Positions 11,745 through 60,603 of a stretch of 64,000 nucleotides of DNA are shown here, one piece after another. Origin of the DNA: a virus (lineage: Duplodnaviria; Caudoviricetes); the IMG/VR virus record IMGVR_UViG_3300035703_002708. One strand, 5' to 3'. Both the position numbers and the translations under genes were made by a program. Position 1 is the first letter of the stretch. Each line of letters begins with the position of its first letter. The notes under the pieces are model-generated. The model was not told the DNA's origin. It did no database searches and worked only from the letters and a program-made list of their open reading frames with translations.

Positions 11745-14700
11745 ATGAAAACAATTATTAATCTTATCAAAAACAAAGTCTCGTTAGTCACGGGTCTTAT
11801 TTTGATGTCCATATTAAGTTATGGGCAAATGTCATTAACAACAACGGGGGTTGCTGTAACACAAAATTTTAACTCAATAGGAAATACCGCTACCGCTAGT
11901 TTACCATCGGGATTTAGACTTGGACAAAACGTGGCTTATTCATCAGGTGTTTCCAATACTACAGCCGCGGCAGGAACCTCAGGTGCTGGTATAATTGCAA
12001 CAACTGGTGGGTATTACAATTTTGGAGATGGTGTCAATTCATCATCAACTGATAGGTCTGTCGGAGTTCTTACTTCTAGTGGATTTATTTCCCCAAGAGA
12101 TTTGATGTTACAAATTCAGAACAACACTGGTGGAATCGTTACTGATTTGGCTTTAACCTTTAAATACGAAAAATATAGGTCAGGTACGAGAATGTTTGAC
12201 ATCAAGTTTTTTGTTGGAACCGACGGTTCAACTTGGACACCACTAACTTCTGGTGACCAAAACTATCCTGCTGACGCTAATAACACGACAGTTTCCAATC
12301 CGCCAACTTCGATAACTAAAAACATCAATGTGACAGGTTTGAACATCACAAATGGAGGTTTTTATTACTTGAAATGGTCTATTATTGGTAATGGTGGTTC
12401 ATCAAATGGACAAGCTTTAGGTCTTGATGATATTTCAGTGACACCAACAACACCACAACCATCAATATCTATTTCATCAATACCTAATTTCTCAACTATC
12501 GGTGGAGTTACCGCACCTATTCAATCATACACAGTATCTGGTGCAAACCTCATTCAAAATCTTACAATACAACCATTCAATTCTAATTTTGAAATCTCGA
12601 CAGACGGAGTAAATTTTAGTGCCGGTGCAATTTTATTAACCCAATCAGGAGGAGTTGTTAATCCAACCACGATTTATGTAAAAATGGTTCCAACCACTGT
12701 AGGAACATTTACAGGTTCTATTTCACATAGTTCAAGTGGTGCAACATTACAGACACAAAATTTAACTGGTACTGTTGTTCCATCAACTTGGTATTCTGTT
12801 GCTTCAGGAAATATTAATGGTGCCGCAGTTTGGTCATCAACACCAACAGGAAGTCCTGACCCAATTGCTTATTCTAAATTCAGAACAGATGTAAGTTTGA
12901 TTATTCAAAACGGACACACAATCGCACTTCCCTCATCATTGGGTGCTACAAACGTAAAAGATTTGACAATAAATTCAGGTGGTAAGTTATGGAGAAATTC
13001 ATCATCAACCGCTAATATGGTCTATTTAAATGTTTATGGAAATATCGTAAATAACGGAGAGATTGGTAATGGAACTACTTTTGATGCTTGTGGATTCAAC
13101 ATCGAAGGAAATTGTTCGGTCCAAGGAACAGGTATTTTCAATTTAGGTCGTGTAAGAAAAAACACAACTTCACCAATATCTTCACTAACAATCCAAACTG
13201 ACTCAGTTAATGTTAGATTCCCTGGTCTTGCACTTTATAATGCTGTAGACAACACATCACTTACCGTTACAGTTCCAACAGGAAAAAAACTTTTACTTCC
13301 TCAAGGAGAGTTTTCTTTGACCTCAACAAACGGTACTGGTAATAATTCTAATATGATTGTTTCTGTTAACGGAACCTTCACCGCACTTGGTTCAGGAACA
13401 TCATATATCATCAATTTATCTACCCTATCAATACCATCGGCACCTGTTGATAACACAAACCCTTGTTCATTTACTATGAATATCGGCTCAAAAGTTAGTA
13501 TCAGAAACTTGGATATTAGACAAACTACAGTATCTAATTTAAATATCAATGGGGGTAACTTATCTGTATTCGGAACTATGCGAGTTTTTGCGGGTTCAGT
13601 TTCAACCAACAATTGTTTAACAATAGAAAATGGTGGTAACTTACTTTCGGGTACAGGTTTTACATACCCATACGTACCTTCAGGTGGTGTTGTTACAGGA
13701 AATGTTAAAGTTAGAAAAACAGGTAATACAGGTTTTGGTGAATATAACTTTTGGTCATCACCAATTACAAATGCAACTTTAAATACCATAACTCAAAATG
13801 GTTCTTTAGCAGGTTCTCCTTTGAACACTTATGAGTATAATCCAACTTTAGTTACAACAGAAATTCAAGACGGATGGGTAAATGTTTCTCCATCATCAAC
13901 TATGTCAGTTGGTAAAGGTTATATCACAACAGGGGCGGGTTCTGTCGTATTTAATGGACCTGTAAATGATGGCACGGTAAATGCTCCAACACAGCAAGGA
14001 ATTGGAACCAACTTTAATTTGGTTGGTAACCCATATCCATCATCATTAACATCATCTACTTTTTTGACAACAAATGGTATTTCTGCTCTTTATCTTTGGG
14101 ACGACGACGCATCCAATGGAGTTGATTATCAAAGTGGAGACTATATTGTTGTTGGAACTCTAGGTGTCGTATCAGGAAGTCAATCAACACCATCACCAAC
14201 AATTAACTCAATTTCACCTTGTCAGGGATTTTTCGTTCAAACAAACTCATCATCTGTTACCTTTAATAACACTATGAGAAGTTCAGGAACTTCTACATTC
14301 TTCGAGGAAGACCCAATTCAAAGATTTTGGTTAAATGCAGTTTCACCTTCACAAGATTACAAAGAAACTCTAATAGCATTTAAAGAAGACGCAACCTTCA
14401 ATAAAGATACTGCTTATGACGCTGAGGTGTTCGGTTCTATCCCTAATCCACAATTTGATTTTTGGTCAAAGTCTCAGGATGATTTTAATTTGACAATTCA
14501 AGCAATTCCAAACACAGGATTCGATATGGAAATTCCACTCGGTTTCAATTCACAAGAACTCGGTGAACACGTAATTTCTTTGGGTAATGTAGAAAATTTG
14601 GATGGAACAACTTTGTTTATTTTGGAAGATAAAACATTAAACCTATTTCATTCATTAAGACAATCTCCATACATTTTCTCTATCACTCAACCTGAATTGG

Positions 14701-15422
14701 GTGACGATAGATTTGTTTTACATATCAAAAAACCTGTGAGTGTTAATGGTGGTTTAACAAATTGTATCGGAACAGGTGGAGATATTGTAATAGATGGTTC
14801 AAGTGATTGGACATACCTTGTAAATGACCAAGTTGGACAACTTAATGACACTTTGGTCACTACTATAGAAAATTTGGCAGCGGGTGATTATTTAGTATAT
14901 CTTTACCACGGCTCATATGTTATAACAAAATCAGTTACAATTGGAAGTTCAACACCAGTAAGTATTAATATTAATAACTTCATTTCACCTTTAGTGGTGG
15001 GAGAACCTTTTACACTCTCATTCGAAGTGGAAGGGGCGTTTAATCCACAGATTTGGTACGGTGATGAATCAGATATAACTGAATCACCTATCCATACTTA
15101 TAATGAACCAGGTGTTTATGTTATTACAATAATCGCTTCAAACGACTACTGCTCAGGTATCGGACAAATCGAAGTTTCCGTAATTGGTCAGACAACATCA
15201 ATTGACAATCCAACATTTAATTACGATTTTTATCCAAACCCCGCTAATCACATCATCAATTTCAAATCATACCAACAAAAAACAATCGTTGTATATAATT
15301 CAGTTGGTCAAGTGGTAAAAAATGAATTGGTTACAAATCAGTTATCATTAGAAGATTTGAATGAAGGTGTGTATATTTTATTAGTGGATGGAAAGACACA
15401 CAAATTAATCGTAAATAAATGA
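11745..15422 (+). CDS. large secreted beta-rich protein with PKD-like domain and T9SS type A C-terminal sorting domain
   Basis: Signal peptide (SYG-Q); S/T/G/N-rich beta domains; C-terminal YPNPA...VYNSVGQVV...LNEGVYILLV..THKLIVNK. Confidence 0.9.
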   Translation: MKTIINLIKNKVSLVTGLILMSILSYGQMSLTTTGVAVTQNFNSIGNTATASLPSGFRLGQNVAYSSGVSNTTAAAGTSGAGIIATTGGYYNFGDGVNSSSTDRSVGVLTSSGFISPRDLMLQIQNNTGGIVTDLALTFKYEKYRSGTRMFDIKFFVGTDGSTWTPLTSGDQNYPADANNTTVSNPPTSITKNINVTGLNITNGGFYYLKWSIIGNGGSSNGQALGLDDISVTPTTPQPSISISSIPNFSTIGGVTAPIQSYTVSGANLIQNLTIQPFNSNFEISTDGVNFSAGAILLTQSGGVVNPTTIYVKMVPTTVGTFTGSISHSSSGATLQTQNLTGTVVPSTWYSVASGNINGAAVWSSTPTGSPDPIAYSKFRTDVSLIIQNGHTIALPSSLGATNVKDLTINSGGKLWRNSSSTANMVYLNVYGNIVNNGEIGNGTTFDACGFNIEGNCSVQGTGIFNLGRVRKNTTSPISSLTIQTDSVNVRFPGLALYNAVDNTSLTVTVPTGKKLLLPQGEFSLTSTNGTGNNSNMIVSVNGTFTALGSGTSYIINLSTLSIPSAPVDNTNPCSFTMNIGSKVSIRNLDIRQTTVSNLNINGGNLSVFGTMRVFAGSVSTNNCLTIENGGNLLSGTGFTYPYVPSGGVVTGNVKVRKTGNTGFGEYNFWSSPITNATLNTITQNGSLAGSPLNTYEYNPTLVTTEIQDGWVNVSPSSTMSVGKGYITTGAGSVVFNGPVNDGTVNAPTQQGIGTNFNLVGNPYPSSLTSSTFLTTNGISALYLWDDDASNGVDYQSGDYIVVGTLGVVSGSQSTPSPTINSISPCQGFFVQTNSSSVTFNNTMRSSGTSTFFEEDPIQRFWLNAVSPSQDYKETLIAFKEDATFNKDTAYDAEVFGSIPNPQFDFWSKSQDDFNLTIQAIPNTGFDMEIPLGFNSQELGEHVISLGNVENLDGTTLFILEDKTLNLFHSLRQSPYIFSITQPELGDDRFVLHIKKPVSVNGGLTNCIGTGGDIVIDGSSDWTYLVNDQVGQLNDTLVTTIENLAAGDYLVYLYHGSYVITKSVTIGSSTPVSININNFISPLVVGEPFTLSFEVEGAFNPQIWYGDESDITESPIHTYNEPGVYVITIIASNDYCSGIGQIEVSVIGQTTSIDNPTFNYDFYPNPANHIINFKSYQQKTIVVYNSVGQVVKNELVTNQLSLEDLNEGVYILLVDGKTHKLIVNK

Positions 15423-39908: not shown

Positions 39909-41270
39909 ATGAATAGTTTTAGATTCATATTGTTTTTACTTTTTTTAGTTCCTTTTGAATTAATTGGTCAAGGTTCCAATACCTGTGCGGGTGCAGCGGC
40001 TAATCAAATTACATTACCTTTTTTTACAAACAACCAAACCACTTGTGGTGACTTGAACGATTATACGGGTCTAAATGCTTGTGCTGCTCCAAACACCGGA
40101 AATTATTATGGAGGCCAGGATTGGATTTATAGTTTTACTCCAACGCAAAATGGATATGTTACAATTACATTAAATGATATTATTGCAACAGGACAAGCAT
40201 ATCCCACCGTTTCATTACTAACCGCTTGCCCTGGAACCGCAGGTGCTTGTTTGGGGTTCGTTCAATGCAGCCCTTTTGCTGGTGGAGGAACATTAGTAAA
40301 TTATGTTGAGGTTGGGCAAACATATTATATATTGGTGGATGCGTATACTTGGTCAAATGTTTTTAATAATTGTTATCAATTTGATTTAAGGGTTAATTTC
40401 AATCCTGTATTGGTTCAACCATCTTGTAATAATATGAATTTCAATAATGGGAATTTTACAGGTTGGTATGGAACAACAGGACTTTCTTTAATAGGTCCGG
40501 CAAATGCTATAACACCAAACTACACCGCAACTTTTTACGGAATAACACCTGGTCGTCAAACAATTATGACTAACGGTAATGACCCATGTGGAGGTTTTCC
40601 CCGTGTTGACCCTTTGGGTGGTCCTTTCTCAGTTAGATTGGGGAATAATAACGTTGATTCCGAAGCCGAACAATTAATGCAAACCTTTGTTGTTTCTGCT
40701 TCAAATAGTAGTTTTACTTATCGTTATGCTGTTGTATTGGAAGACCCTGGACATAACTCAAACGAGCAACCTTTTTTCAGAGCATTACTTCGGGACCAAA
40801 ATGGAAATATCATTCCTTGTTCAGATTTTGTTGTTTCAGCCGGAAGTAATCTACCGGGTTTTTTCAATTCACCAAACTGTACAGGTGTTGTTTATAAACC
40901 TTGGAGTTCAGTAAATGTCGATTTGACTGACTATATCGGTCAGCAAGTAACGGTAGAATTTACAACAGGAGATTGTAGTCAGGGTGCTCATTACGGGTAT
41001 GCCTATATTGATGCGGGATGTGCTCCATCAGTATTGGAATTGATGCCTGATACGATTTGTGAAGGGGAGACAATAACACTCCAAGCCCCATCAGGATATC
41101 AATCTTATTTATGGACACCGGGAGGACAAACCACACCATCAATAACGGTGACACCAAATGATGATACGGTTTATCAATTAAACTTGGTCGCATTTAACGG
41201 ATGCGTAAATTCCGTTCAAGTACCAATCACTGTTATACCATATCCTGTCGTTAGTGTTTTCACAAATTAA
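39909..41270 (+). CDS. secreted Cys-rich protein resembling the N-terminal part of Bacteroidota T9SS type B cargoes; no sorting domain
   Basis: Signal peptide; DWIYSFTP/YYILVDAY domain; FNNGNFTGW..SVRLGN..YAVVLEDPGH domain; ICEGETITL..YLWTPGGQTT repeat at the end. Confidence 0.7.
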   Translation: MNSFRFILFLLFLVPFELIGQGSNTCAGAAANQITLPFFTNNQTTCGDLNDYTGLNACAAPNTGNYYGGQDWIYSFTPTQNGYVTITLNDIIATGQAYPTVSLLTACPGTAGACLGFVQCSPFAGGGTLVNYVEVGQTYYILVDAYTWSNVFNNCYQFDLRVNFNPVLVQPSCNNMNFNNGNFTGWYGTTGLSLIGPANAITPNYTATFYGITPGRQTIMTNGNDPCGGFPRVDPLGGPFSVRLGNNNVDSEAEQLMQTFVVSASNSSFTYRYAVVLEDPGHNSNEQPFFRALLRDQNGNIIPCSDFVVSAGSNLPGFFNSPNCTGVVYKPWSSVNVDLTDYIGQQVTVEFTTGDCSQGAHYGYAYIDAGCAPSVLELMPDTICEGETITLQAPSGYQSYLWTPGGQTTPSITVTPNDDTVYQLNLVAFNGCVNSVQVPITVIPYPVVSVFTN

Positions 41271-46826: not shown

Positions 46827-47759
46827 ATGATGCAGAAAAAAAGATTTTTGATTTTGTCAGAGTATAGGTTAGGTAATGTCAAACCTTTAATATGTGAGGA
46901 TGAGTCTCCATATAAAAAATTAAAGAATAATCCTAGTGCTAACGACATTGCTCAAGTAATTAAAGATTCGGATAAAAGTTTTTTTGGAAACGATACTGAG
47001 GCCTATGCGGAAGCCGCATTTTTTGCAATTAAGAATACGAGTTTGTATAATAAGGTAAAATTAATACTTGGTGCGGACCCATTTGAGTTTTTGAAAAGTT
47101 TTATGGATGTTAGTAAACCTTATCAAAACGAGGATAGTTATTCTACTATAGAAAATCATTATTACAAATTGTTTCCAAATTTACGTTCTAGTATGTGTTC
47201 ACCCGACGATATAAAGGTATCAACTTGGAAATCTTTATATTCTACTTTAGTGGAAAGAAATATGATTCAAAAAAATGAATCATTACTGATTGTTTGGGGT
47301 CCGACGCAAACTATGTACTATACAAAAGATGGTAAAAATTTGATTGGAAAATATAGTGTCTCCACGGCAAAAAAAGGATTTGGTAACTCTGTAGATAGTG
47401 ACAAAACATCTACAGGTTTACTAGAAGTTACAAATAAAATTAAAGGGAAAAATAATGAGGTTCTAATAGGAAAAAAACCTACTGGTAAATTATTAGGTCC
47501 TAATGTAGATTCAAACAGAATTGATAGTAAAGGAAGAACTCATGTTGCGGAAGTCCTTACTGGTATACTCGAATTAGATGGACTTGAGAAATGTAATGAA
47601 AATGCATTTTCAAGGAACATTTATATACATGGGACAAATAGAGAACAATTTTTAGGTTCAAAAAATTCTGGTGGTTGTATAAGAGTATCGAATGCGGTTA
47701 TAAATGAATTAATTAATTCTTTACAAATAGGAACAAAGGTATACGTGTACCCAACATAA
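46827..47759 (+). CDS. L,D-transpeptidase (YkuD) domain protein
   Basis: IYIHGT.......SGGCIRVSN catalytic His/Cys motif; YSVSTAKKGFG. Confidence 0.85.
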   Translation: MMQKKRFLILSEYRLGNVKPLICEDESPYKKLKNNPSANDIAQVIKDSDKSFFGNDTEAYAEAAFFAIKNTSLYNKVKLILGADPFEFLKSFMDVSKPYQNEDSYSTIENHYYKLFPNLRSSMCSPDDIKVSTWKSLYSTLVERNMIQKNESLLIVWGPTQTMYYTKDGKNLIGKYSVSTAKKGFGNSVDSDKTSTGLLEVTNKIKGKNNEVLIGKKPTGKLLGPNVDSNRIDSKGRTHVAEVLTGILELDGLEKCNENAFSRNIYIHGTNREQFLGSKNSGGCIRVSNAVINELINSLQIGTKVYVYPT

Positions 47760-52346: not shown

Positions 52347-53756
52347 ATGAAAAAGATTGTGAAACTAACTGAATCTGACCTACAAAGAATTATAGAAAAG
52401 GTTATAAGTGAAGAAAAAACGCCATCAGAAGAGAAAAAAAAATTGGCAATGAAACATTTAAGAAAAATTTCTGAGTATTTGAAAAATTATGATATCGAAA
52501 AGGAGGATTTTCCTGGTGCGGATATGACTTATCTAATCAATATGTTCGAGAAAATCGCTGACCACCAAGATATTAAGTTGTAATGACAAAAAAACAAGAG
52601 GCATTATTAAAAATTGTTGAAAGGTTCGGAGTTGAGAGGGCCGCCAAATCAACAGGTTTAAGTTTGTTTGAAATTTATAATGAACTTGATGGTCATTTGG
52701 AATTTACCCCTGAAATTTGTTTGGAACTTTTGGAAGATATGTTTAATAATACTTCGTTATTAAAACAAAGTGATGAAAATATTAGTTTAGAGTGGGGTGT
52801 TTTTACCGATGGTATTTGTACTTGGTATTATATCAATAGAAAGACTGGAGAAAAACTAACAGTTGCCGCAACCCCATTTTGGGATGGAGAACCTAATGTC
52901 CCTGTAAATTTAGAAGATTATGTTGTTGATAAATTTGACCCGAATACAAAAGAATGGACTATTGTATACCAAGAATATGCTGATATGTATGATACATTAG
53001 AATATGAAGATGTACCTGAAAAATTTGAAAGATTAAGTCATCTAATAAATTGGTTTAACGAAGTTTATTTTGAAGATGTCAAAGAGATTATATATGACGG
53101 ATTAAAATACCTAAGAAATAACGCAAAAAGAAAAGGAGTATGATATCTGAAAATATGACACAATTTCTGTATAGGTATCTTGATACTATATTTCATAAAT
53201 CTCAATTCAATAAAGAGGAGTTTGAAGATGAAAATGTTTATGAAATATTTTCTGAAGAATTCCATATTTCAATAGTGAAACTTACAACTAGAATAAGAGT
53301 TAGTGCAGATTTATTCCATAAAATGCATGGATTGTTTGGTGTAAGTTACGGTGATTTGGGAGATGTTATTAGAGATTACCTCTCTATGAAATTAGATTAC
53401 GATTTTACTTATTACCCTACTATACCATCCTAATGAAAATAATACTAACCGATAATAAATTAGAAAAAATAATGTTAAGGTATATCCAAGACATTATGAA
53501 AGTGGATTTAGAACCAACCGTTGATGGTGATAATCTCTACTATAGAGATAGTAATGGTGATATATTCCTAAAAGTTGATATGACGTTTCCACGGTCAATA
53601 GATGTTTTACTTTCCTATGACTTCTATATCAAAATGTTTAGATATTTCAAAGCAGACCCAACTGAATATCACAGATTACTCAAATCAGTTATAGAAAAAA
53701 TAACAAAATTAGAAGTTAAAGAAATTATACCATCTTTGATGGGTTATGAAGATTAA
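52347..53756 (+). CDS. four hypothetical proteins (52347 LTESDL leader; 52583, paralog of 23515; 53140; 53433)
   Basis: TATTTAT 52323-52329; 52583 shares GLSLxEI, ATP(Y/F)xD and LxxW(Y/F)N with 23515. Confidence 0.7.
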
Positions 53757-54565
53757 CTCAAAAGTTTGTAAAAGGTTTTGAACTCTTTAAGTCTATGGTC
53801 AAGACCTATCGTACCACCATTTACTCTTTTAGTAACAGATGTAACAACCTCATCAGTCGCACCTCTATCACAAATCGACCAAAGGTTATTATTATTAAAG
53901 AAAAATGCCGCTGAGGCTAGTGGATATTTTGTTGCCACTAAATCAGGATTAGCAACACAATCTTCACCTATAAACTTAGTGAAAGTTTTATAATTGTCTT
54001 TTCCTGTGAGCTGGATATAGCCCCTCCCTCGAAACTTATACCCTTCTTTTGATGCCTCATCACCATTACCCATTCTTCCACCATATACTTTTGACGCAAT
54101 CTTCTCAGGTTGTTTAGCATATGACTCGGCTAAGTTGCCAGGGAAATATTTACCAAATATTTTTTTCAGTCCATCAACTGAATAATTCAAATTTTCACTT
54201 GTTACTTTAAATCCACCACTTTCGTGAGAACACTGAGCCAAAAAGTGAGCCAATCTTAAATTGTTTGTTATATTAAATTTTGATGCGGTTTCAGAAATCT
54301 GAACCAATACTGAGTCAGGAATATGACCTTTTAATTTATCAATATTTAATCCTGTTACAGGTTGAATTACCACATCTTCTTTTAATATTATACCAAGTTT
54401 TGATAATGTCGTAGGACCAGCAACTCCATCAGCGGTTAGACCATTTTTTGTTTGCCATTCTTTTAATGCCTTTTCAGTTTTGGGACCGAAATCACCGTCA
54501 GCAACTAAACCTAATTTTTCTTGTAACAATTTAACTTCGTTACTTTTCATTCCAAGTTTTAACAT
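53753..54565 (-). CDS. endolysin: peptidoglycan-binding domain plus glycoside hydrolase family 19
   Basis: ADGDFGPKT..WQ..GLTADGVAGPTT; LAHFLAQCSHESGGF..ENLNYS; FRGRGYIQLTGKDNY; TKRVNGGTIGL. Confidence 0.93.
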   Translation of the reverse strand: MLKLGMKSNEVKLLQEKLGLVADGDFGPKTEKALKEWQTKNGLTADGVAGPTTLSKLGIILKEDVVIQPVTGLNIDKLKGHIPDSVLVQISETASKFNITNNLRLAHFLAQCSHESGGFKVTSENLNYSVDGLKKIFGKYFPGNLAESYAKQPEKIASKVYGGRMGNGDEASKEGYKFRGRGYIQLTGKDNYKTFTKFIGEDCVANPDLVATKYPLASAAFFFNNNNLWSICDRGATDEVVTSVTKRVNGGTIGLDHRLKEFKTFYKLLS

Positions 54566-54634
54566 AACATAATTTTTATCATAAATATTTTACGATTATG
54601 ATATTTTTAAGTATTTATGGAAAAATAATACTTA

Positions 54635-56395
54635 ATGACAAAGTTCCAAAGAAGAAGCATTTACTTATCCGCTTTAATTACGATATTATTTCTCCTTTAC
54701 AAATACTCATTAACATCTGGGTTTATAAATCATAATAGATATACTGATTTATTTGAGGTAATTTACTTCATTTCAACATCCATTATAACTTTCAAGTTGT
54801 TTCACGATTTAATAACAAGAAACAGAAAATACGAACAAAACCAACTTAATTCTAAGAAATTTAATGGGGTTTTATTAAATCAATCTTATAACCCCGATTA
54901 CTATAGTGGTGATATTAACCAAGCGGCAAAAACTATGACCAAAGAAGCGGTAGAAACTCTAAATGCCGACAGATGTTCAATTTGGTTATATAATAAAAGT
55001 AAATCTTCAATATCTTGTGTTGAATTATATGTAAAATCAGAACTACTTTGGTATCAAGATATTAAGTTATATAAAAAAGATTACAAACCCTATTTTGATT
55101 ATATCGAAGGAAACCCAATTATAGTTGCAGATAATGCCGAAACTCACCCTGGTACAGAATGTTTTACAGAAAGTTATTTAAGACCACTAGGTATCAAATC
55201 TATGTTAGATGTTCCAATTATTTTCAAGGGTAATGTTATGGGGGTTGTTTGTATTGAATCATATGACCAAAGAAATTGGACTACTGAAGAATTAAATTTT
55301 GCTCAGATGTTATCTTCGTTCTTTTCTTTTTCATATTCAATTAAGGAAAACTTAAAACTAAATGACCAATTTGAAAAGTTTGACAATTTTGTTGATTACT
55401 CTGTTTTGATTAGTAGAACTGACAGACAAGGAAAAATAACATATGTTAATAATAAGTTTGAGCAAGTCTCAGGATATTCCTTAGAAGAGGTTTTGGGTAA
55501 AGACCATAAGATATTAAATTCAGGACAACACCCAAGGGATTATTGGACAAATATGTATAAAGTTGTTGTCAAAGACAAACTTATTTGGAATGATATTGTA
55601 ACGAATAGAAATAAGGATGGAAATTTATATTGGGTTGATTCGTATATAAAAGGTGAGTTCGATAGTAATGGTAGGTTGACAGGTTTTGTATCATTAAGAT
55701 ATGATGTTACGGATTTGATAAAAAAATCACATGAGATAGAAAAAAAGAATACTTACTTAGAACACGCAGCAAAAATCATTAGACACGATATGCATTCTGG
55801 TATAAATACATACATACCAAGAGGTGTTAGTTCGTTAGAAAGAAGGTTAAAACCCGAAGATATTCAAAATTTGAAGATTGAATCTCCACTCAAAATGATA
55901 AGAGAGGGATTGGTCCATACCCAAAAAGTTTATAAAGGAGTTTATGAATTTACCAACTTGGTTAAAAAAGATGCGGTATTTCATACATCAACTCATGACT
56001 TGAAAGAAATATTAACAAATTATTTAAATTCTACATCTTATAAAAGTCAAGTATTAATTTCTGACTTGGTAACAACAAATGTTAATGAATCACTTTTTTG
56101 CACTGCGGTGGATAACCTGATACGCAATGGTCTAAAATATAATGATTCGGACACAAAAGTCGTAAAAATATTTATGGAATCTGACAATGTCATAGCAATA
56201 CAAGATAACGGTAGAGGTATGTCTCAGATGGATTTCGAATATTTATCTAAACCATATGTTAGAAAAGAAGGTCAAAGAGAATCCGGTACTGGTCTTGGAT
56301 TGAATATTTGTTTGGCAATTATGGAAGAACACGGATTTGAACTTACCTGTGAAAAAAATAACATAGGTACAAAAATGAAAATAAAAATTAAATAA
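54635..56395 (+). CDS. membrane sensor histidine kinase (2 TM - GAF - PAS - HisKA - HATPase)
   Basis: GAF (IKSMLDVPI), PAS (ITYVNNKF..SGYSLEEVLGKDH..RNKDGNLYWV), H-box IIRHDMH, N-box DNLIRNGLKY, DNGRGM, GTGLGL. Confidence 0.93.
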   Translation: MTKFQRRSIYLSALITILFLLYKYSLTSGFINHNRYTDLFEVIYFISTSIITFKLFHDLITRNRKYEQNQLNSKKFNGVLLNQSYNPDYYSGDINQAAKTMTKEAVETLNADRCSIWLYNKSKSSISCVELYVKSELLWYQDIKLYKKDYKPYFDYIEGNPIIVADNAETHPGTECFTESYLRPLGIKSMLDVPIIFKGNVMGVVCIESYDQRNWTTEELNFAQMLSSFFSFSYSIKENLKLNDQFEKFDNFVDYSVLISRTDRQGKITYVNNKFEQVSGYSLEEVLGKDHKILNSGQHPRDYWTNMYKVVVKDKLIWNDIVTNRNKDGNLYWVDSYIKGEFDSNGRLTGFVSLRYDVTDLIKKSHEIEKKNTYLEHAAKIIRHDMHSGINTYIPRGVSSLERRLKPEDIQNLKIESPLKMIREGLVHTQKVYKGVYEFTNLVKKDAVFHTSTHDLKEILTNYLNSTSYKSQVLISDLVTTNVNESLFCTAVDNLIRNGLKYNDSDTKVVKIFMESDNVIAIQDNGRGMSQMDFEYLSKPYVRKEGQRESGTGLGLNICLAIMEEHGFELTCEKNNIGTKMKIKIK

Positions 56396-56406
56396 CCTAA
56401 CCTAAA

Positions 56407-56841
56407 ATGATTGAATCAATATTATTAGTTGACGATGAAGACCTGTTTCATTTGGTATTTGAAGACGCATGCTCTTTATTGGAGATAAGTTTGTCTTTAA
56501 AATCTGTAAATAGTTCAGATGAGGCTGCGAGAATGTTTAAGCAGTGGTATGAAACAAGTAGTAAAGAAAAACCTGAATGTGTGTTTGTTGACCTAAACAT
56601 AGTAGGTTCCTCTTTTGATGGAATTGAATTGATTAGAAAAATAAATTTTGAATATGGAAACCACGTTATTATCGGAATAATCTCATCATCAAACGAACCA
56701 GAAGAACAAGCAAAGGCAATCAAAGCAGGTGCTCAATTTTGGATTATAAAATCTGATGATATTGAACCAAGATTAGAGGAGTTCAAAAAGGATTACGAAG
56801 GATATAAAAATAGAACCGCACCATTTAAGATTTACAAATGA
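56407..56841 (+). CDS. single-domain response regulator
   Basis: LLVDDED, phospho-Asp FVDLN, DGIELIR, ISSS, IIKSD. Confidence 0.93.
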   Translation: MIESILLVDDEDLFHLVFEDACSLLEISLSLKSVNSSDEAARMFKQWYETSSKEKPECVFVDLNIVGSSFDGIELIRKINFEYGNHVIIGIISSSNEPEEQAKAIKAGAQFWIIKSDDIEPRLEEFKKDYEGYKNRTAPFKIYK

Positions 56842-57515
56842 TAACTTTTAACAAACAAACTAAACAACAATTAATTAATATTTGTAAGACAAGGAACATT
56901 TGTCTTGAGGGGAATATTATCAGAGTTATTGATTATTCAGGTGATACTGAATTTGAACAATATGTGAAAACTTGTTTGGAAAAAGATAAGGAAATGAGAA
57001 AAAAAAGATTGGAGATTACAAAACAAGTCCAATCTAAAAATAATGAATTAGAGTCATTAAACAAAGAAAATCAAAGGATTTTGGAAGAATTGACAGAGAG
57101 TTTGAAATCTGTTGAGGAATCCAAAATACAATACGAGGTTCAAAATAGGGAACTCATTCTTTGGAAAGAAGAAAACGAAAAAATTAGTTTGGAATTACAA
57201 CAAGAAATGTTAAAATCTGAACAAGCAAGAGTTGAGGCTGAAAATGCTAAAAAAACTGCAGAAAACGATTTAGATGTTTTACAAAAGAGAACTCAAACTC
57301 AACTGATTGAAAGGATTGTCAAAGTATCGTTGGGTGTTATTATTACTGTTGGTTTGATTACCACAATTATGTATGGAATTGCTTTATTTACTGAAAAAGA
57401 TACTCAGATTATCGGTTCAACTTGGGCCAATATGTTTGGTATATTACTTACAAATGCATTTAGTATTATTGGAACAATAATGGGTGTTAAATACGCATCT
57501 AAAGAAACAGAATAA
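56838..57515 (+). CDS. coiled-coil protein with two C-terminal TM helices
   Basis: E/K/Q heptad region followed by two hydrophobic helices; ATGA-coupled to the receiver gene. Confidence 0.75.
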   Translation: MITFNKQTKQQLINICKTRNICLEGNIIRVIDYSGDTEFEQYVKTCLEKDKEMRKKRLEITKQVQSKNNELESLNKENQRILEELTESLKSVEESKIQYEVQNRELILWKEENEKISLELQQEMLKSEQARVEAENAKKTAENDLDVLQKRTQTQLIERIVKVSLGVIITVGLITTIMYGIALFTEKDTQIIGSTWANMFGILLTNAFSIIGTIMGVKYASKETE

Positions 57516-59144
57516 TTATTTCATGAATTCAGATAATCTATCTGATAACATTTCGTTAAAATAATTTTCATTTGCGTCTGGAATATAACTGTCATCAAAA
57601 TTCCATCTCGGTTTGTCAAAACCATAATCATCAACAACAATTCCGTCAAAAATACATCCATAATCTGTGTCACCGCAATTCTCTAATAATTCAAAAAACC
57701 ATTCATCATTTGAAACATGATTATCAACAAAAGATTGTAAATCAATTTGGAGTACAGCACCCTCATCATTTAGTTTCAAGACTGTTCCATATTCTTCTAA
57801 TCTTGACTTCAAATGTTCTCTCAGAGTATCAATATAATCATCCGCCTCAGCGTCATTAACTGACGAAGATATAGCATTTCTCACTTCATAATCATTATCG
57901 AACTCCTCTATCAAACTAGTTGTTGAGTCCTCTTTATGTTCTTCGGGATTTTCTGACAAAGAAATCAAATACTCTCTAATTTTTTTCTCGTTCTTGTCAT
58001 TCAAATAATAACTCACCGCACCTTCCCAATCAGCATTATCAAAATTTTGCCATATTTCCCAAGGGTCGGTAAGTAATGTTTCGAAAAAATATGACTTAGA
58101 TTCTCTTTTAAATCCTTGAGCGTCAGTCCATTTTCTTCTACTCATAACCCAATTTCCATCAACATAATTGTCGATTTGTTCAACAGGTATTTCTAATGTA
58201 AAAGTTGGAAAACTTGGTAATTCAATCAGACCCATCTCTTTAAGTTTTTTTCTCAAAGAATATGATTCAAAAAGTTCAGGTCTTTGTTCATAAAGTTCTT
58301 TAATTGTCTCATCAGGTAAATCTGTAATCTTAAAATCTAAGTTTGATGCATATTCAGAACCAAAACCTTGTATGAGGTAATCTTCTTGTTCTCCACCACC
58401 ACCTAAAACAAAAAATAAAGGTAAAATATATTGGTGGAACTCTTCTTGTGGTTTGCTATTTTTGGGTCCTTTTAATTGATATAAAATACCATCATTACCG
58501 ATAGATGCGGTCAAATGACTTCTATTGAGTGTAAATTTTCCACCAGGTAATTTTTTTGTTTCTCTTAAAGAATATAGATTATTATTAGAACCTGTTCTTC
58601 CGCAGTGACCCATTCTTTTACATTCTTCATCAGAAGAGTTCGTATTCAAATCAACCCAATAAAACCCTTCTCCATTTTCGTTTCTGAAATCTTTAACGAT
58701 TGTATTTTCTTCAATATAATTAATATCTCCTTGACCCAAACTTAATGAGTCGTGCCACTCTCTTGATTTATCGTATAATTCTGAAAATTCTAAATTTTGG
58801 TATTGATTTAATCTACCATTAAGACCGACTCTAACCCAATCCATTATTGATTGAATTCGTTGTCTATCTGATGATGGGATATTTTTTAGTTTATTTATCT
58901 GAACAATCACATCTTTCTCAGTAGTACCCTCTTGATATTGCGAAATAGTGTCTAAAAACCTTTTCATCCATTTTTTGAACATTATAACTGCTAAACCGCC
59001 ACAAGTTCTATCGAACCATTCTGCAATTTCAGGGTCAAGACCAATTTTATTTATTAATACATCTTTTTTGGATGCTTCGGTAATCAAATTACGAACACCC
59101 ATTATTTTTTGTATCTTGACTATATTTTTATCTAACTTTTTCAA
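57516..59144 (-). CDS. PcfJ-like domain protein with LITE leader
   Basis: SREWHDSL, EECKRMGHCG, LYSLRE, QLKGPKNSKP. Confidence 0.6.
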   Translation of the reverse strand: MKKLDKNIVKIQKIMGVRNLITEASKKDVLINKIGLDPEIAEWFDRTCGGLAVIMFKKWMKRFLDTISQYQEGTTEKDVIVQINKLKNIPSSDRQRIQSIMDWVRVGLNGRLNQYQNLEFSELYDKSREWHDSLSLGQGDINYIEENTIVKDFRNENGEGFYWVDLNTNSSDEECKRMGHCGRTGSNNNLYSLRETKKLPGGKFTLNRSHLTASIGNDGILYQLKGPKNSKPQEEFHQYILPLFFVLGGGGEQEDYLIQGFGSEYASNLDFKITDLPDETIKELYEQRPELFESYSLRKKLKEMGLIELPSFPTFTLEIPVEQIDNYVDGNWVMSRRKWTDAQGFKRESKSYFFETLLTDPWEIWQNFDNADWEGAVSYYLNDKNEKKIREYLISLSENPEEHKEDSTTSLIEEFDNDYEVRNAISSSVNDAEADDYIDTLREHLKSRLEEYGTVLKLNDEGAVLQIDLQSFVDNHVSNDEWFFELLENCGDTDYGCIFDGIVVDDYGFDKPRWNFDDSYIPDANENYFNEMLSDRLSEFMK

Positions 59145-59452
59145 AATCTTTCTTTTTTTGCTTGGAAAAATTCAAAATCCCACCCTGACCCGTATTTCCA
59201 AACGTCTAAACTAAAGTACGATTCAACCTTTTCAATAATTTCCTTTTTCAGTGTCTTCAAATCGTACCAATTCTTTTGACTTTTCAAATTATTAATTGTA
59301 ACAATAATTCTAATGACCTCTATTGTTCTTTCTTCTTCAGGAAGTTCAGGGGATGAACCCAAATAAGAATTAACTTTCTCAAAATCAACATCCATAACTT
59401 CAGGAAAAGACCTTAAAATAACTTGTTCAATAAGTGGAACTAATTTATGCAT
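59141..59452 (-). CDS. hypothetical protein (dispersed paralog family)
   Basis: LIEQVILRSFPEVMDV resembles 30954 and 36926. Confidence 0.65.
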   Translation of the reverse strand: MHKLVPLIEQVILRSFPEVMDVDFEKVNSYLGSSPELPEEERTIEVIRIIVTINNLKSQKNWYDLKTLKKEIIEKVESYFSLDVWKYGSGWDFEFFQAKKERF

Positions 59453-59454
59453 AA

Positions 59455-60603
59455 TTACACTCTATACTTATTTTCATATTTAGGTTTCGGCAACATATCC
59501 ATATGTAAATCCCACTCCTTGATTGACTTTTTCTCACCAATTAAAGAGTATAGTTTTGACAATTTCTTCAACATTTCAGAAGATACTTGTTTTAATTTTT
59601 TTTCCTCAAACTTAAAGAAATTTAAAGGATTGTCTTTAAATTTTGTGACCTCATTTGAGAAATTAATAATCAATTCTTGTTTGTCAGGACCATAAATACC
59701 GAACAATTGCTCGAAAAAATCCGTAGTTATCAAATGTTTGTAATTACTTACTATACTATTACTTAGATTTATATAAAATAGTTCAAGTGCTCTTTTTATT
59801 TTTTCTTCGTCTGTTTTGTAATTTTGTAATTCACCAACCTGTTCCAATAGTTCATCGATTTTATCCATATAATTTGACATATCACTAATCAGTCCTTCTA
59901 ATGAAAACCTGTTAATTTCTTGATACATTTTATATGTTTGATTCGACAATAAAAAATCGTGGAACATATCTCTAGACACTCCTAGTTTCTTAATATGTGA
60001 ATGAACTTCTGCCGGTCTCACAATATTTTCAGTCATAGATGCGTAATATAAATAATGAGTAAATTTCCTTAATGGTGGAATATCAAATCTTGTTTCTTGA
60101 ACACCTGAATACCTTGCCCTTCCTTTAATTGTTTCGTGAGGTCTTTTAAAATCGTCGTAAGCGTGCATCAATTCGTGACTGAAAGACGATTGTATTTCAG
60201 GTTCCTCAATTTGAATTAATTCCAAAACTTGTGAAAATTTTGTTGGTTTTTGTTCAGGAATCGCAATACGAACCGATAGTGTTAAATCTTTGGACTTTGA
60301 AGTGATTAATTTATTTGGTAGTTCTGGTTGAGATGACATATGAATTCCCATACCATAAAACAGTGGTTCATCTATGTCATCACTTGTGGGAAAACTTAAA
60401 TTTATTGTGACTGATTTGAAATTGAAATCCCCAATTTTGAATCTTCCTTGTAATTCAAATGGATAGTTTTCAGTTGGGTCGATTATGTTATCACCCTCGT
60501 TTTCTACTTCTCTTTCAAAAGATTTGAAAATTCTTTTTGAGACGTTTTCTATGTTAGCGGGAACTCCTACCGCTTCAAATATATCTTGTTTTGAAATTCG
60601 CAT
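59455..60603 (-). CDS. putative zincin metallopeptidase
   Basis: SHELMHAYD (HExxH) plus downstream Glu; ATAAATA 60620-60626 upstream. Confidence 0.6.
   Translation of the reverse strand: MRISKQDIFEAVGVPANIENVSKRIFKSFEREVENEGDNIIDPTENYPFELQGRFKIGDFNFKSVTINLSFPTSDDIDEPLFYGMGIHMSSQPELPNKLITSKSKDLTLSVRIAIPEQKPTKFSQVLELIQIEEPEIQSSFSHELMHAYDDFKRPHETIKGRARYSGVQETRFDIPPLRKFTHYLYYASMTENIVRPAEVHSHIKKLGVSRDMFHDFLLSNQTYKMYQEINRFSLEGLISDMSNYMDKIDELLEQVGELQNYKTDEEKIKRALELFYINLSNSIVSNYKHLITTDFFEQLFGIYGPDKQELIINFSNEVTKFKDNPLNFFKFEEKKLKQVSSEMLKKLSKLYSLIGEKKSIKEWDLHMDMLPKPKYENKYRV

Follow-up and report, generated by a model that had tools for sequence, protein, structure and literature searches.

A stretch of 64,000 nucleotides from a virus of the class Caudoviricetes (IMG/VR record IMGVR_UViG_3300035703_002708; hereafter the window) carries at 53753-57515 a GH19 endolysin gene on the minus strand, divergent from a three-gene operon on the plus strand that encodes a sensor histidine kinase, a stand-alone receiver and a membrane protein of 225 amino acids, which we call the hairpin protein. 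Judging from the sequences, we are confident that the phosphorelay encoded by this phage operon works and has a membrane effector dedicated to it. The purpose of the relay is a more finely balanced question, in which we lean towards the control of lysis, with the relay gating a holin-like or holin-regulating membrane protein. A first-pass annotation of the same DNA had proposed a phosphorelay that senses host energy or redox state late in infection and possibly sets the time of lysis through the membrane protein; on comparative evidence only, this is the best-supported reading of the locus, and it is supported in part. The module would then be a lineage-specific phosphorelay of T4-like jumbo phages of Bacteroidota-type hosts and part of their lysis gene set, a description to which we give a modest preference.

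A predicted phosphorelay in a lineage of T4-like phages

The four open reading frames, and the spacer of 69 bp that separates endolysin from kinase (54566-54634), lie where the first-pass annotation had placed them. Only 11 nucleotides intervene between the stop codon of the kinase and the start of the receiver, the receiver stop and the start of the hairpin gene overlap in ATGA, and no terminator-like site was found inside the three-gene unit; for these reasons we regard the kinase, receiver and hairpin genes as an operon.

The kinase (54635-56395, 586 amino acids) combines a GAF domain (residues 93-231, nucleotides 54911-55327; Pfam, 3.5e-20), a PAS domain (residues 253-361, nucleotides 55391-55717; Pfam PAS_9/PAS_3, 2e-11) and a core of putative DHp and HATPase_c (residues 369-586, nucleotides 55739-56392), within which Pfam places HATPase_c at residues 487-585 (E 9.8e-14, above the family cut-off). 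Its H-box RHDMHSG, which holds H384, and its N box (497), G1 box (DNGRG, 524) and G2 box (GLGL, 551-556) are conserved at 95% or more in 61 family members, and the DHp region aligns to HK853 and to YF1/FixL chains. Two transmembrane segments followed by GAF, PAS, HisKA and HATPase domains had been read here originally; the GAF, PAS and HATPase_c domains bear this out, whereas the HisKA part shows a conserved H-box but no match to the Pfam HisKA model at E≤0.01. The transmembrane part is borderline: of two moderately hydrophobic segments at the N-terminus, that at residues 7-32 reaches a Kyte-Doolittle maximum of 1.58 and that at residues 41-61 one of 1.46.

The PAS domain had been assigned to the flavin redox sensors of the Aer/NifL type, and this assignment is sustained. 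Its best solved relatives are the PAS-A domain of MmoS (3ewk, E 5.7e-25), Aer (8dik, 2.4e-16) and NifL (2gj3, 1.1e-11). In the flavin pocket, Aer residues T18, H53, N85 and R115 are equivalent to MmoS T103, H132, N164 and R195 (PMC9668731), and in HMMER alignments they map to kinase residues S256, a conservative change, H291, N324 and R355. By sequence, the kinase PAS belongs to the clade of flavin adenine dinucleotide-binding domains that contains MmoS, Aer and NifL.

The receiver (56407-56841, 144 amino acids) matches Pfam Response_reg (PF00072) with 38.7 bits against a cut-off of 30.2, and its nearest solved chain is the receiver 3ilh. The full catalytic set that had been recognised by eye is confirmed, since D9, D10, D62, S93/S94 and K115 are invariant in 53 homologues, an alignment of which (A2) has a mean column identity of 86%. 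Beyond the receiver domain there is only a conserved C-terminal extension of 29 amino acids (residues 116-144), and Pfam identifies no DNA-binding domain in the protein; with neither a DNA-binding nor any other output domain, it would be expected to act by protein contact.

The third gene (56838-57515) was described at first as a coiled-coil protein with two transmembrane (TM) segments, and it is so: two clear TM helices lie near the C-terminus, at residues 159-186 and 199-217. An AlphaFold2 model built on 53 sequences (predicted local distance difference test score, 85.9) consists of a small N-terminal cap, a helix from residue 37 to 185 that runs without a break into TM1, a loop of four residues and TM2. 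The N-terminal domain (residues 1 to about 71) has invariant residues E24, G25, F39, Y42, R57, Q65, N68 and L71. In the hairpin formed by TM1, loop and TM2 (residues 159-222, nucleotides 57312-57503), W196, F208 and I210 are invariant across 66 representatives and N198, T205, N206, S209, G212 and G216 nearly so, giving a TNAFSI motif, and the protein ends in a short, charged tail, KYASKETE. Of the features expected of a holin, this small, predicted inner-membrane protein has the TM domains and the charged tail, although its large cytoplasmic N-terminal part is atypical. No other protein called within 5 kb of the endolysin is strongly predicted to lie in a membrane; a second membrane match (58948-59214) falls inside a 542-amino acid open reading frame on the opposite strand and is taken to be spurious.

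The hairpin family is large: at 90% identity it falls into 6185 clusters, and at 50% it still has 218 representatives. No Pfam family matches the protein, LrgA and LrgB included; PHROG offers nothing beyond one weak match, to a family without known function; and an hhalign comparison with Phage_holin_10 returns a probability of 0.5%. Foldseek found nothing in the PDB at E≤0.001 for the AlphaFold2 model, which is mostly one long helix and so of little use for such a search. Source databases attach inconsistent automatic names to members of the family (P0130, P0136, P0184, P0188), among them 'RNase H-like nuclease', 'Fe2+ transport protein B' and 'gamma-glutamylcysteine synthetase', without any domain match that would support them. 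Short proteins in which fragments of TsaD, GT2, SOUL or a permease are joined to TM2 alone were set aside as probable artefacts of assembly or gene calling.

No structural gene of the window was named in PHROG and Pfam scans of its 20 larger open reading frames, the few that could be named being thymidylate synthase, a ParB-like protein, a YkuD protein and a protein with a type IX secretion sorting tail, and so the phage nature of the DNA rests on its relatives. An identical kinase fragment is recorded on a contig of 316,559 bp, and six IMG/VR contigs share 10-25 syntenic matches of open reading frames with the window around the module (nested frames on the opposite strand included). A T4-type Gp23 capsid protein is encoded in each of five IMG/VR records that carry the module; these measure 203-430 kb, have a single hairpin gene apiece and in one case show terminal repeats. 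ESM Atlas clusters that resemble the hairpin protein are entirely viral (100%). The hairpin module occurs at no fewer than 581 IMG/VR loci, as opposed to only eight loci among 185,579 species represented by one genome each, so that the first impression of intact signalling pairs as unusual phage cargo does not extend to this lineage, where they are not rare.

These facts bear on whether the genes were recently captured from a host, or whether the contig is cellular and serves a bacterium. The domains are of bacterial type and eight loci come from bins of metagenome-assembled genomes (MAGs), as either idea would have it. Yet the eight matches are all on MAG contigs of 3-89 kb, scattered over eight different lineages, which fits mis-binned phage DNA, and the best cellular match to the kinase core, among 251 genomes sampled from the phylum of a Flavobacteriales MAG, scores only 49.5 bits at 23-43% identity, against 57-94% identity among phage copies. 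Together with the IMG/VR loci and the Gp23 capsid genes of relatives, this contradicts both a recent, sporadic capture and a cellular contig, and leaves them with almost no probability. From these comparisons we conclude that the module has long been present, and is common, in this lineage of phages, and that it is a phage element rather than a host capture. The earlier proposal, that a phage carries an intact pair of kinase and receiver together with a membrane protein dedicated to it, is upheld.

A pointer to the host comes from elsewhere in the window, where an open reading frame of 1225 amino acids (11745-15422, plus strand) ends in a Por_Secre_tail domain, a type IX secretion sorting signal (E 3.7e-8). 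Type IX secretion is not known outside Bacteroidota; the host's own system may export the phage protein, and the sorting domain points to a Bacteroidota-like host.

Linkage of the relay to endolysin genes

The endolysin (53753-54565, minus strand, 270 amino acids) has an N-terminal PG_binding_1 domain (Pfam, 1.5e-12) followed by Glyco_hydro_19 (1.3e-10), and matches PHROG 181, 'endolysin', at E 6e-66. Its gene gave the only match of the region in a DNA search of 50,697 GenBank phages, at about 73% identity to two huge uncultured phages of 462 and 635 kb. No signal peptide and no TM or other hydrophobic segment is predicted in it; lacking an export signal, the enzyme would need a membrane lesion to reach the wall.

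Synteny of kinase, receiver, TM gene and lysin across related phages had been named as a check on the original reading, and the linkage proves to survive four rearrangements and the complete turnover of flanking genes. The 25 window genes between 48.5 and 63.5 kb were compared with the genes that lie within 6 kb of the module at ten distant loci. No more than four of them recurred, those for lysin, kinase, receiver and hairpin protein, either as the quartet or as the lysin with a sensor-fused hairpin, in four different orders and among otherwise replaced neighbours. We consider this the strongest single result for a link between module and lysin.

Frequencies were counted over 43 dereplicated IMG/VR loci whose flanks were long enough. 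In every one (43/43) the hairpin gene immediately follows the receiver gene, and in 41/43 the receiver in turn immediately follows the kinase core. A GH19 lysin is found within 6 kb of the module in 30/43, where chance would place a given gene in a 12-kb neighbourhood of a 300-kb genome about 4% of the time; linkage to lysin genes is thus frequent across relatives, but not universal. The lysin is divergent and upstream in 15 cases, on the same strand downstream in eight, on the same strand upstream in six and convergent downstream in one. Five loci (L043, L046, L067, L088, L093) have it directly after the hairpin gene on the same strand, which puts the hairpin gene in the position of a holin, and one 228-kb contig (L009), with a kinase 61% identical to that of the window, carries kinase, receiver, hairpin, GH19 lysin and Phage_holin_10 genes all on one strand. 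In the five large Gp23-bearing records the best GH19 match is 2-7 kb from the single hairpin gene.

The spacer between lysin and kinase contains two inverted copies of (A)TATTTAT, one for each direction, as had been pointed out from the sequence. The copy at 54612-18 (plus) lies 16 nucleotides 5' of the kinase start codon and that at 54581-87 (minus) 15 nucleotides 5' of the lysin start codon. Both belong to an enriched upstream motif and both are kept in six relatives (L001-L005 and L007). Among sense-strand 7-mers upstream of genes in the window, the overlapping ATATTTA ranks first in enrichment and TATTTAT second; the latter precedes 25 of 111 window genes where 3.2 would be expected, most commonly 15-19 nucleotides before the ATG. 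The box (ATATTTAT) looks like a phage-specific class of promoter or initiation signal. A T4-type late promoter (TATAAATA) was considered and rejected, the enriched form being TATTTAT in sense orientation (25 genes, against 13 for the complement), and for this reason 'late' timing is not inferred from the box. Sigma-70-like sites are no more frequent in the sequence than in shuffled sequence. At least 17 window genes have (A)TATTTAT(A) about 15 nucleotides before the start codon, usually followed by an A-rich stretch; examples are the genes at 39909, 41313, 42789, 52347 and 59455 (minus).

The window as a whole is AT-rich (about 31% G+C), with dense, short genes predominantly on the plus strand. 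Immediately downstream of the module, and convergent with it, are three minus-strand genes (57516-60603) for products of 542, 103 and 382 amino acids, which have 43-73% identity in relatives whose flanking genes are 90-98% identical. None of the three has a Pfam or PHROG match, the 103-residue product having been scanned against PHROG only; they form a fast-evolving block, perhaps with a role in host interaction. Further upstream, a gene at 46827-47759 (plus) encodes a protein with a YkuD L,D-transpeptidase domain (E 4.5e-14).

Exchange of domains and a model for the control of lysis

Phage copies of the kinase share 57-94% identity in the core, while their sensor parts have been shuffled. The closest relatives (L001-L006) are 85-94% identical to the window kinase in the core and 83% in the GAF domain, but only 27% in the PAS domain, which means that the PAS has been swapped between very close relatives; even so, their PAS domains still fall within the flavin-PAS clade. 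Such a swap points to modular exchange of the sensed input. Other relatives have sensors of the form GAF-PAS-PAS or PAS-PAS, a bare core of 294 amino acids, or two kinases in tandem. Relatives with a 707-amino acid kinase have two kinases for one receiver; L007 (8001-13316) is an example, with the 707-residue kinase, an additional protein of 208 amino acids and a second HATPase_c kinase of 496 amino acids before the receiver.

The hairpin protein is itself modular, as an exhaustive HMMER search revealed. In other proteins the end of its coil and the hairpin are joined to a sensor, which is a GAF domain in P0263, one PAS domain in P0281 and P0289 and a pair of PAS domains in P0286. The GAF of P0263 and the PAS of P0281 closely resemble those of the kinase in sequence. 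Two of these sensor-hairpin fusion genes lie 0.8-1.15 kb upstream of lysin genes, where neither kinase nor receiver is called. Because relatives have cytoplasmic PAS or GAF domains in its place, the soluble N-terminal part of the hairpin protein is predicted to be cytoplasmic, and because the hairpin accepts various cytoplasmic sensors, we read it as the output. The N-terminal domain has partners of its own, being fused also to HisKA and HATPase domains (P0360 and others). At two loci (L102, L103) a gene of this composition directly follows kinase and receiver, with a one-base overlap between the stop of the receiver gene and its own start. The N-terminal domain therefore goes with an upstream receiver gene at 43/43 loci and at these two, whatever the output, and on this ground we read it as the receiver's target. 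The arrangement in L102 (2675-6050) and L103, with HisKA and HATPase in place of the membrane hairpin, is a possible kinase-receiver-kinase cascade.

It might be objected that the receiver's true target is a host protein, such as a kinase, a component of motility or secretion or a transcription factor, and that the hairpin protein is a mere anchor, phosphate sink or phosphatase-like modulator. Stand-alone receivers commonly act on varied partners, as CheY, DivK and CpdR do; this receiver is well above the N-terminal domain of the hairpin protein in conservation (70-98% against 37-94%); and the variants without a kinase suggest crosstalk with other kinases. However, fusions that dispense with the receiver mark the hairpin itself as an output, the N-terminal domain is strictly associated with an upstream receiver gene, and the receiver and hairpin genes are translationally coupled, so that we think a host target improbable. 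Co-folding of the receiver (A2) with residues 1-155 of the hairpin protein (alignment A3), run without controls, gave 0.26 against a mark of 0.32 and is counted neither way.

We propose a model in which the kinase would read cytoplasmic signals through its GAF and flavin-type PAS domains, the likely input, by homology, being the redox or energy state of the infected cell. Given its intact conserved motifs, the kinase would autophosphorylate at H384 and pass the phosphate to D62 of the receiver, which, as gene coupling and domain swaps suggest, would then contact the N-terminal domain of the translationally coupled 225-residue protein. From there the signal may run down a cytoplasmic helix of about 120 residues into the hairpin and alter its assembly in the inner membrane. 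The hairpin, finally, would either form holin-like pores itself or regulate the true holin, and in this way set the time at which the signal-less GH19 endolysin reaches the wall. In its fullest form this would amount to a new kind of lysis clock, in which a redox or energy phosphorelay, or a fused PAS/GAF sensor, gates undescribed holin-like hairpins post-translationally by way of a signalling helix, and the burst is set by metabolic state and not by the accumulation of holin alone; we offer this extended version tentatively, and would not be surprised to see it fail in some part.

Several observations weigh against the proposal. Thirteen of the 43 loci have no GH19 gene within 6 kb; in a complete genome of 181 kb about 90 kb separate a GAF-hairpin gene from the single GH19 match, and in another record hairpin gene and GH19 are about 12 kb apart. 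A separate Phage_holin_10 gene is present in relatives, adjoining the hairpin gene in one record (G002) but 20 kb from it in G001 and 119 kb from it in G004, and so the hairpin protein need not be the holin; no Phage_holin_10 gene was found in the 64-kb window by tblastn with a Phage_holin_10 protein. The hairpin protein matches no known holin family by Pfam, PHROG or alignment to Phage_holin_10. Variants without a kinase exist, two loci (L018, L019) having kept lysin, receiver and hairpin with no kinase on contigs of 15 and 36 kb; in the type represented by L019 (4300-6306) the lysin is 85 bp from, and divergent to, receiver and hairpin, and the flanking genes are as in the window. Lastly, the sensor part varies between close relatives, so that 'redox' may apply to this phage alone: of the original claim of redox or energy sensing, the flavin-type PAS of this kinase stands, but the input is not fixed across relatives.

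The loci without a nearby lysin, the distant fused hairpin, the separate holin candidate and the lack of any holin-family match would all sit comfortably with relay and hairpin controlling some other membrane process, whether superinfection exclusion, membrane potential or transport in the long cycle of a jumbo phage, or a block to DNA entry, the lysin being nearby only through co-expression of envelope-directed genes. Against it, the lysin alone has stayed with the three genes while their order changed four times and every other neighbour was replaced, sensor-fused hairpins again adjoin lysins, and a gene of a holin family stands beside the module in L009 and G002. We regard this explanation as unlikely, while giving it more weight than a host target, and continue to favour control of lysis.

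Lysis timing sets phage fitness and burst size, and to our knowledge T4-type lysis inhibition, which senses superinfection in the periplasm, is the only signal-dependent control of it that is well understood. In the present case a large group of freshwater jumbo phages, abundant in the environment, appears to wire a complete bacterial-style phosphorelay with interchangeable sensors to a membrane protein of the lysis cassette. If this is true, phages measure host physiology (redox state, energy, small ligands) and decide the time of lysis; the membrane hairpin is a new class of output for two-component signalling and part of a simple, modular switch from sensor to membrane; and an unannotated protein family of more than 6000 clusters gains a defined candidate function.

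Comparison with known systems

A literature search turned up neither a phage two-component system linked to lysis nor the present arrangement. All that a survey of jumbo phages reports is a divergent receiver, in no case linked to histidine kinases (PMC7824862).

The nearest functional analogue is lysis inhibition in T4, where the holin T is governed by the antiholins RI and RIII (PMC11413866), and its counterpart in ICP1, TeaA and ArrA (PMC7182436). They share with the proposed relay that they are phage-encoded and make lysis timing depend on a signal, post-translationally, through a membrane protein of about 220 amino acids with a large soluble domain that receives the signal; moreover, the present family is carried by T4-like (Gp23) phages. 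The T4 and ICP1 systems, however, are periplasmic and involve no phosphorylation, and in T4 a small antiholin receives the signal in the periplasm, whereas the hairpin module would have a cytoplasmic receiving domain with input from kinase and receiver or from a fused PAS or GAF. A periplasmic receiving domain on the holin, bound by a secreted antiholin, is the mark of T and RI and is not seen in the module, and its two-helix hairpin belongs to an undescribed family; the likeness to T, RI, TeaA and ArrA drawn here is one of function.

A two-component system adjoining holin-like membrane proteins has a cellular precedent in staphylococci, in which LytSR is encoded beside the holin- and antiholin-like LrgAB/CidAB proteins and is reported to sense collapse of the membrane potential and to modulate murein hydrolase activity (PMC2996381). 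LytR, however, is a DNA-binding regulator of the LytTR type that acts on transcription of lrgAB, whereas the phage receiver has no DNA-binding domain, and the LrgAB proteins are unrelated to the hairpin protein, which has no Pfam match.

The components of the relay have close relatives with different outputs. MmoS, Aer and NifL, the closest solved relatives of the kinase PAS and the source of its retained pocket residues, serve in regulation of methane monooxygenase, in aerotaxis and in nif control. CheY (with FliM), DivK, CpdR and Spo0F resemble the phage receiver in being receiver-only proteins with a full catalytic set and an output by contact; they differ from it in that the proposed partner here is a phage-only coiled-coil membrane hairpin and the pathway would be wholly virus-encoded.

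For the hairpin itself the best comparison is with class II holins and pinholins, such as S21 68, which have two TM domains with both termini inside. The hairpin protein likewise has two TM helices, a short loop, a short charged tail, a predicted N-in/C-in topology and a gene beside an endolysin, and its TM2 conserves small or polar residues (S209, G212, G216, T205, N206). It differs in the cytoplasmic part ahead of the hairpin, where N-terminal domain and coiled coil together take up about 155 residues, and we know of no described class II holin that is so equipped. Kinase, receiver and flavin-type PAS, then, are orthodox members of their families; what is new is a pathway encoded by a virus, its output through a membrane hairpin and its place in the lysis gene set.

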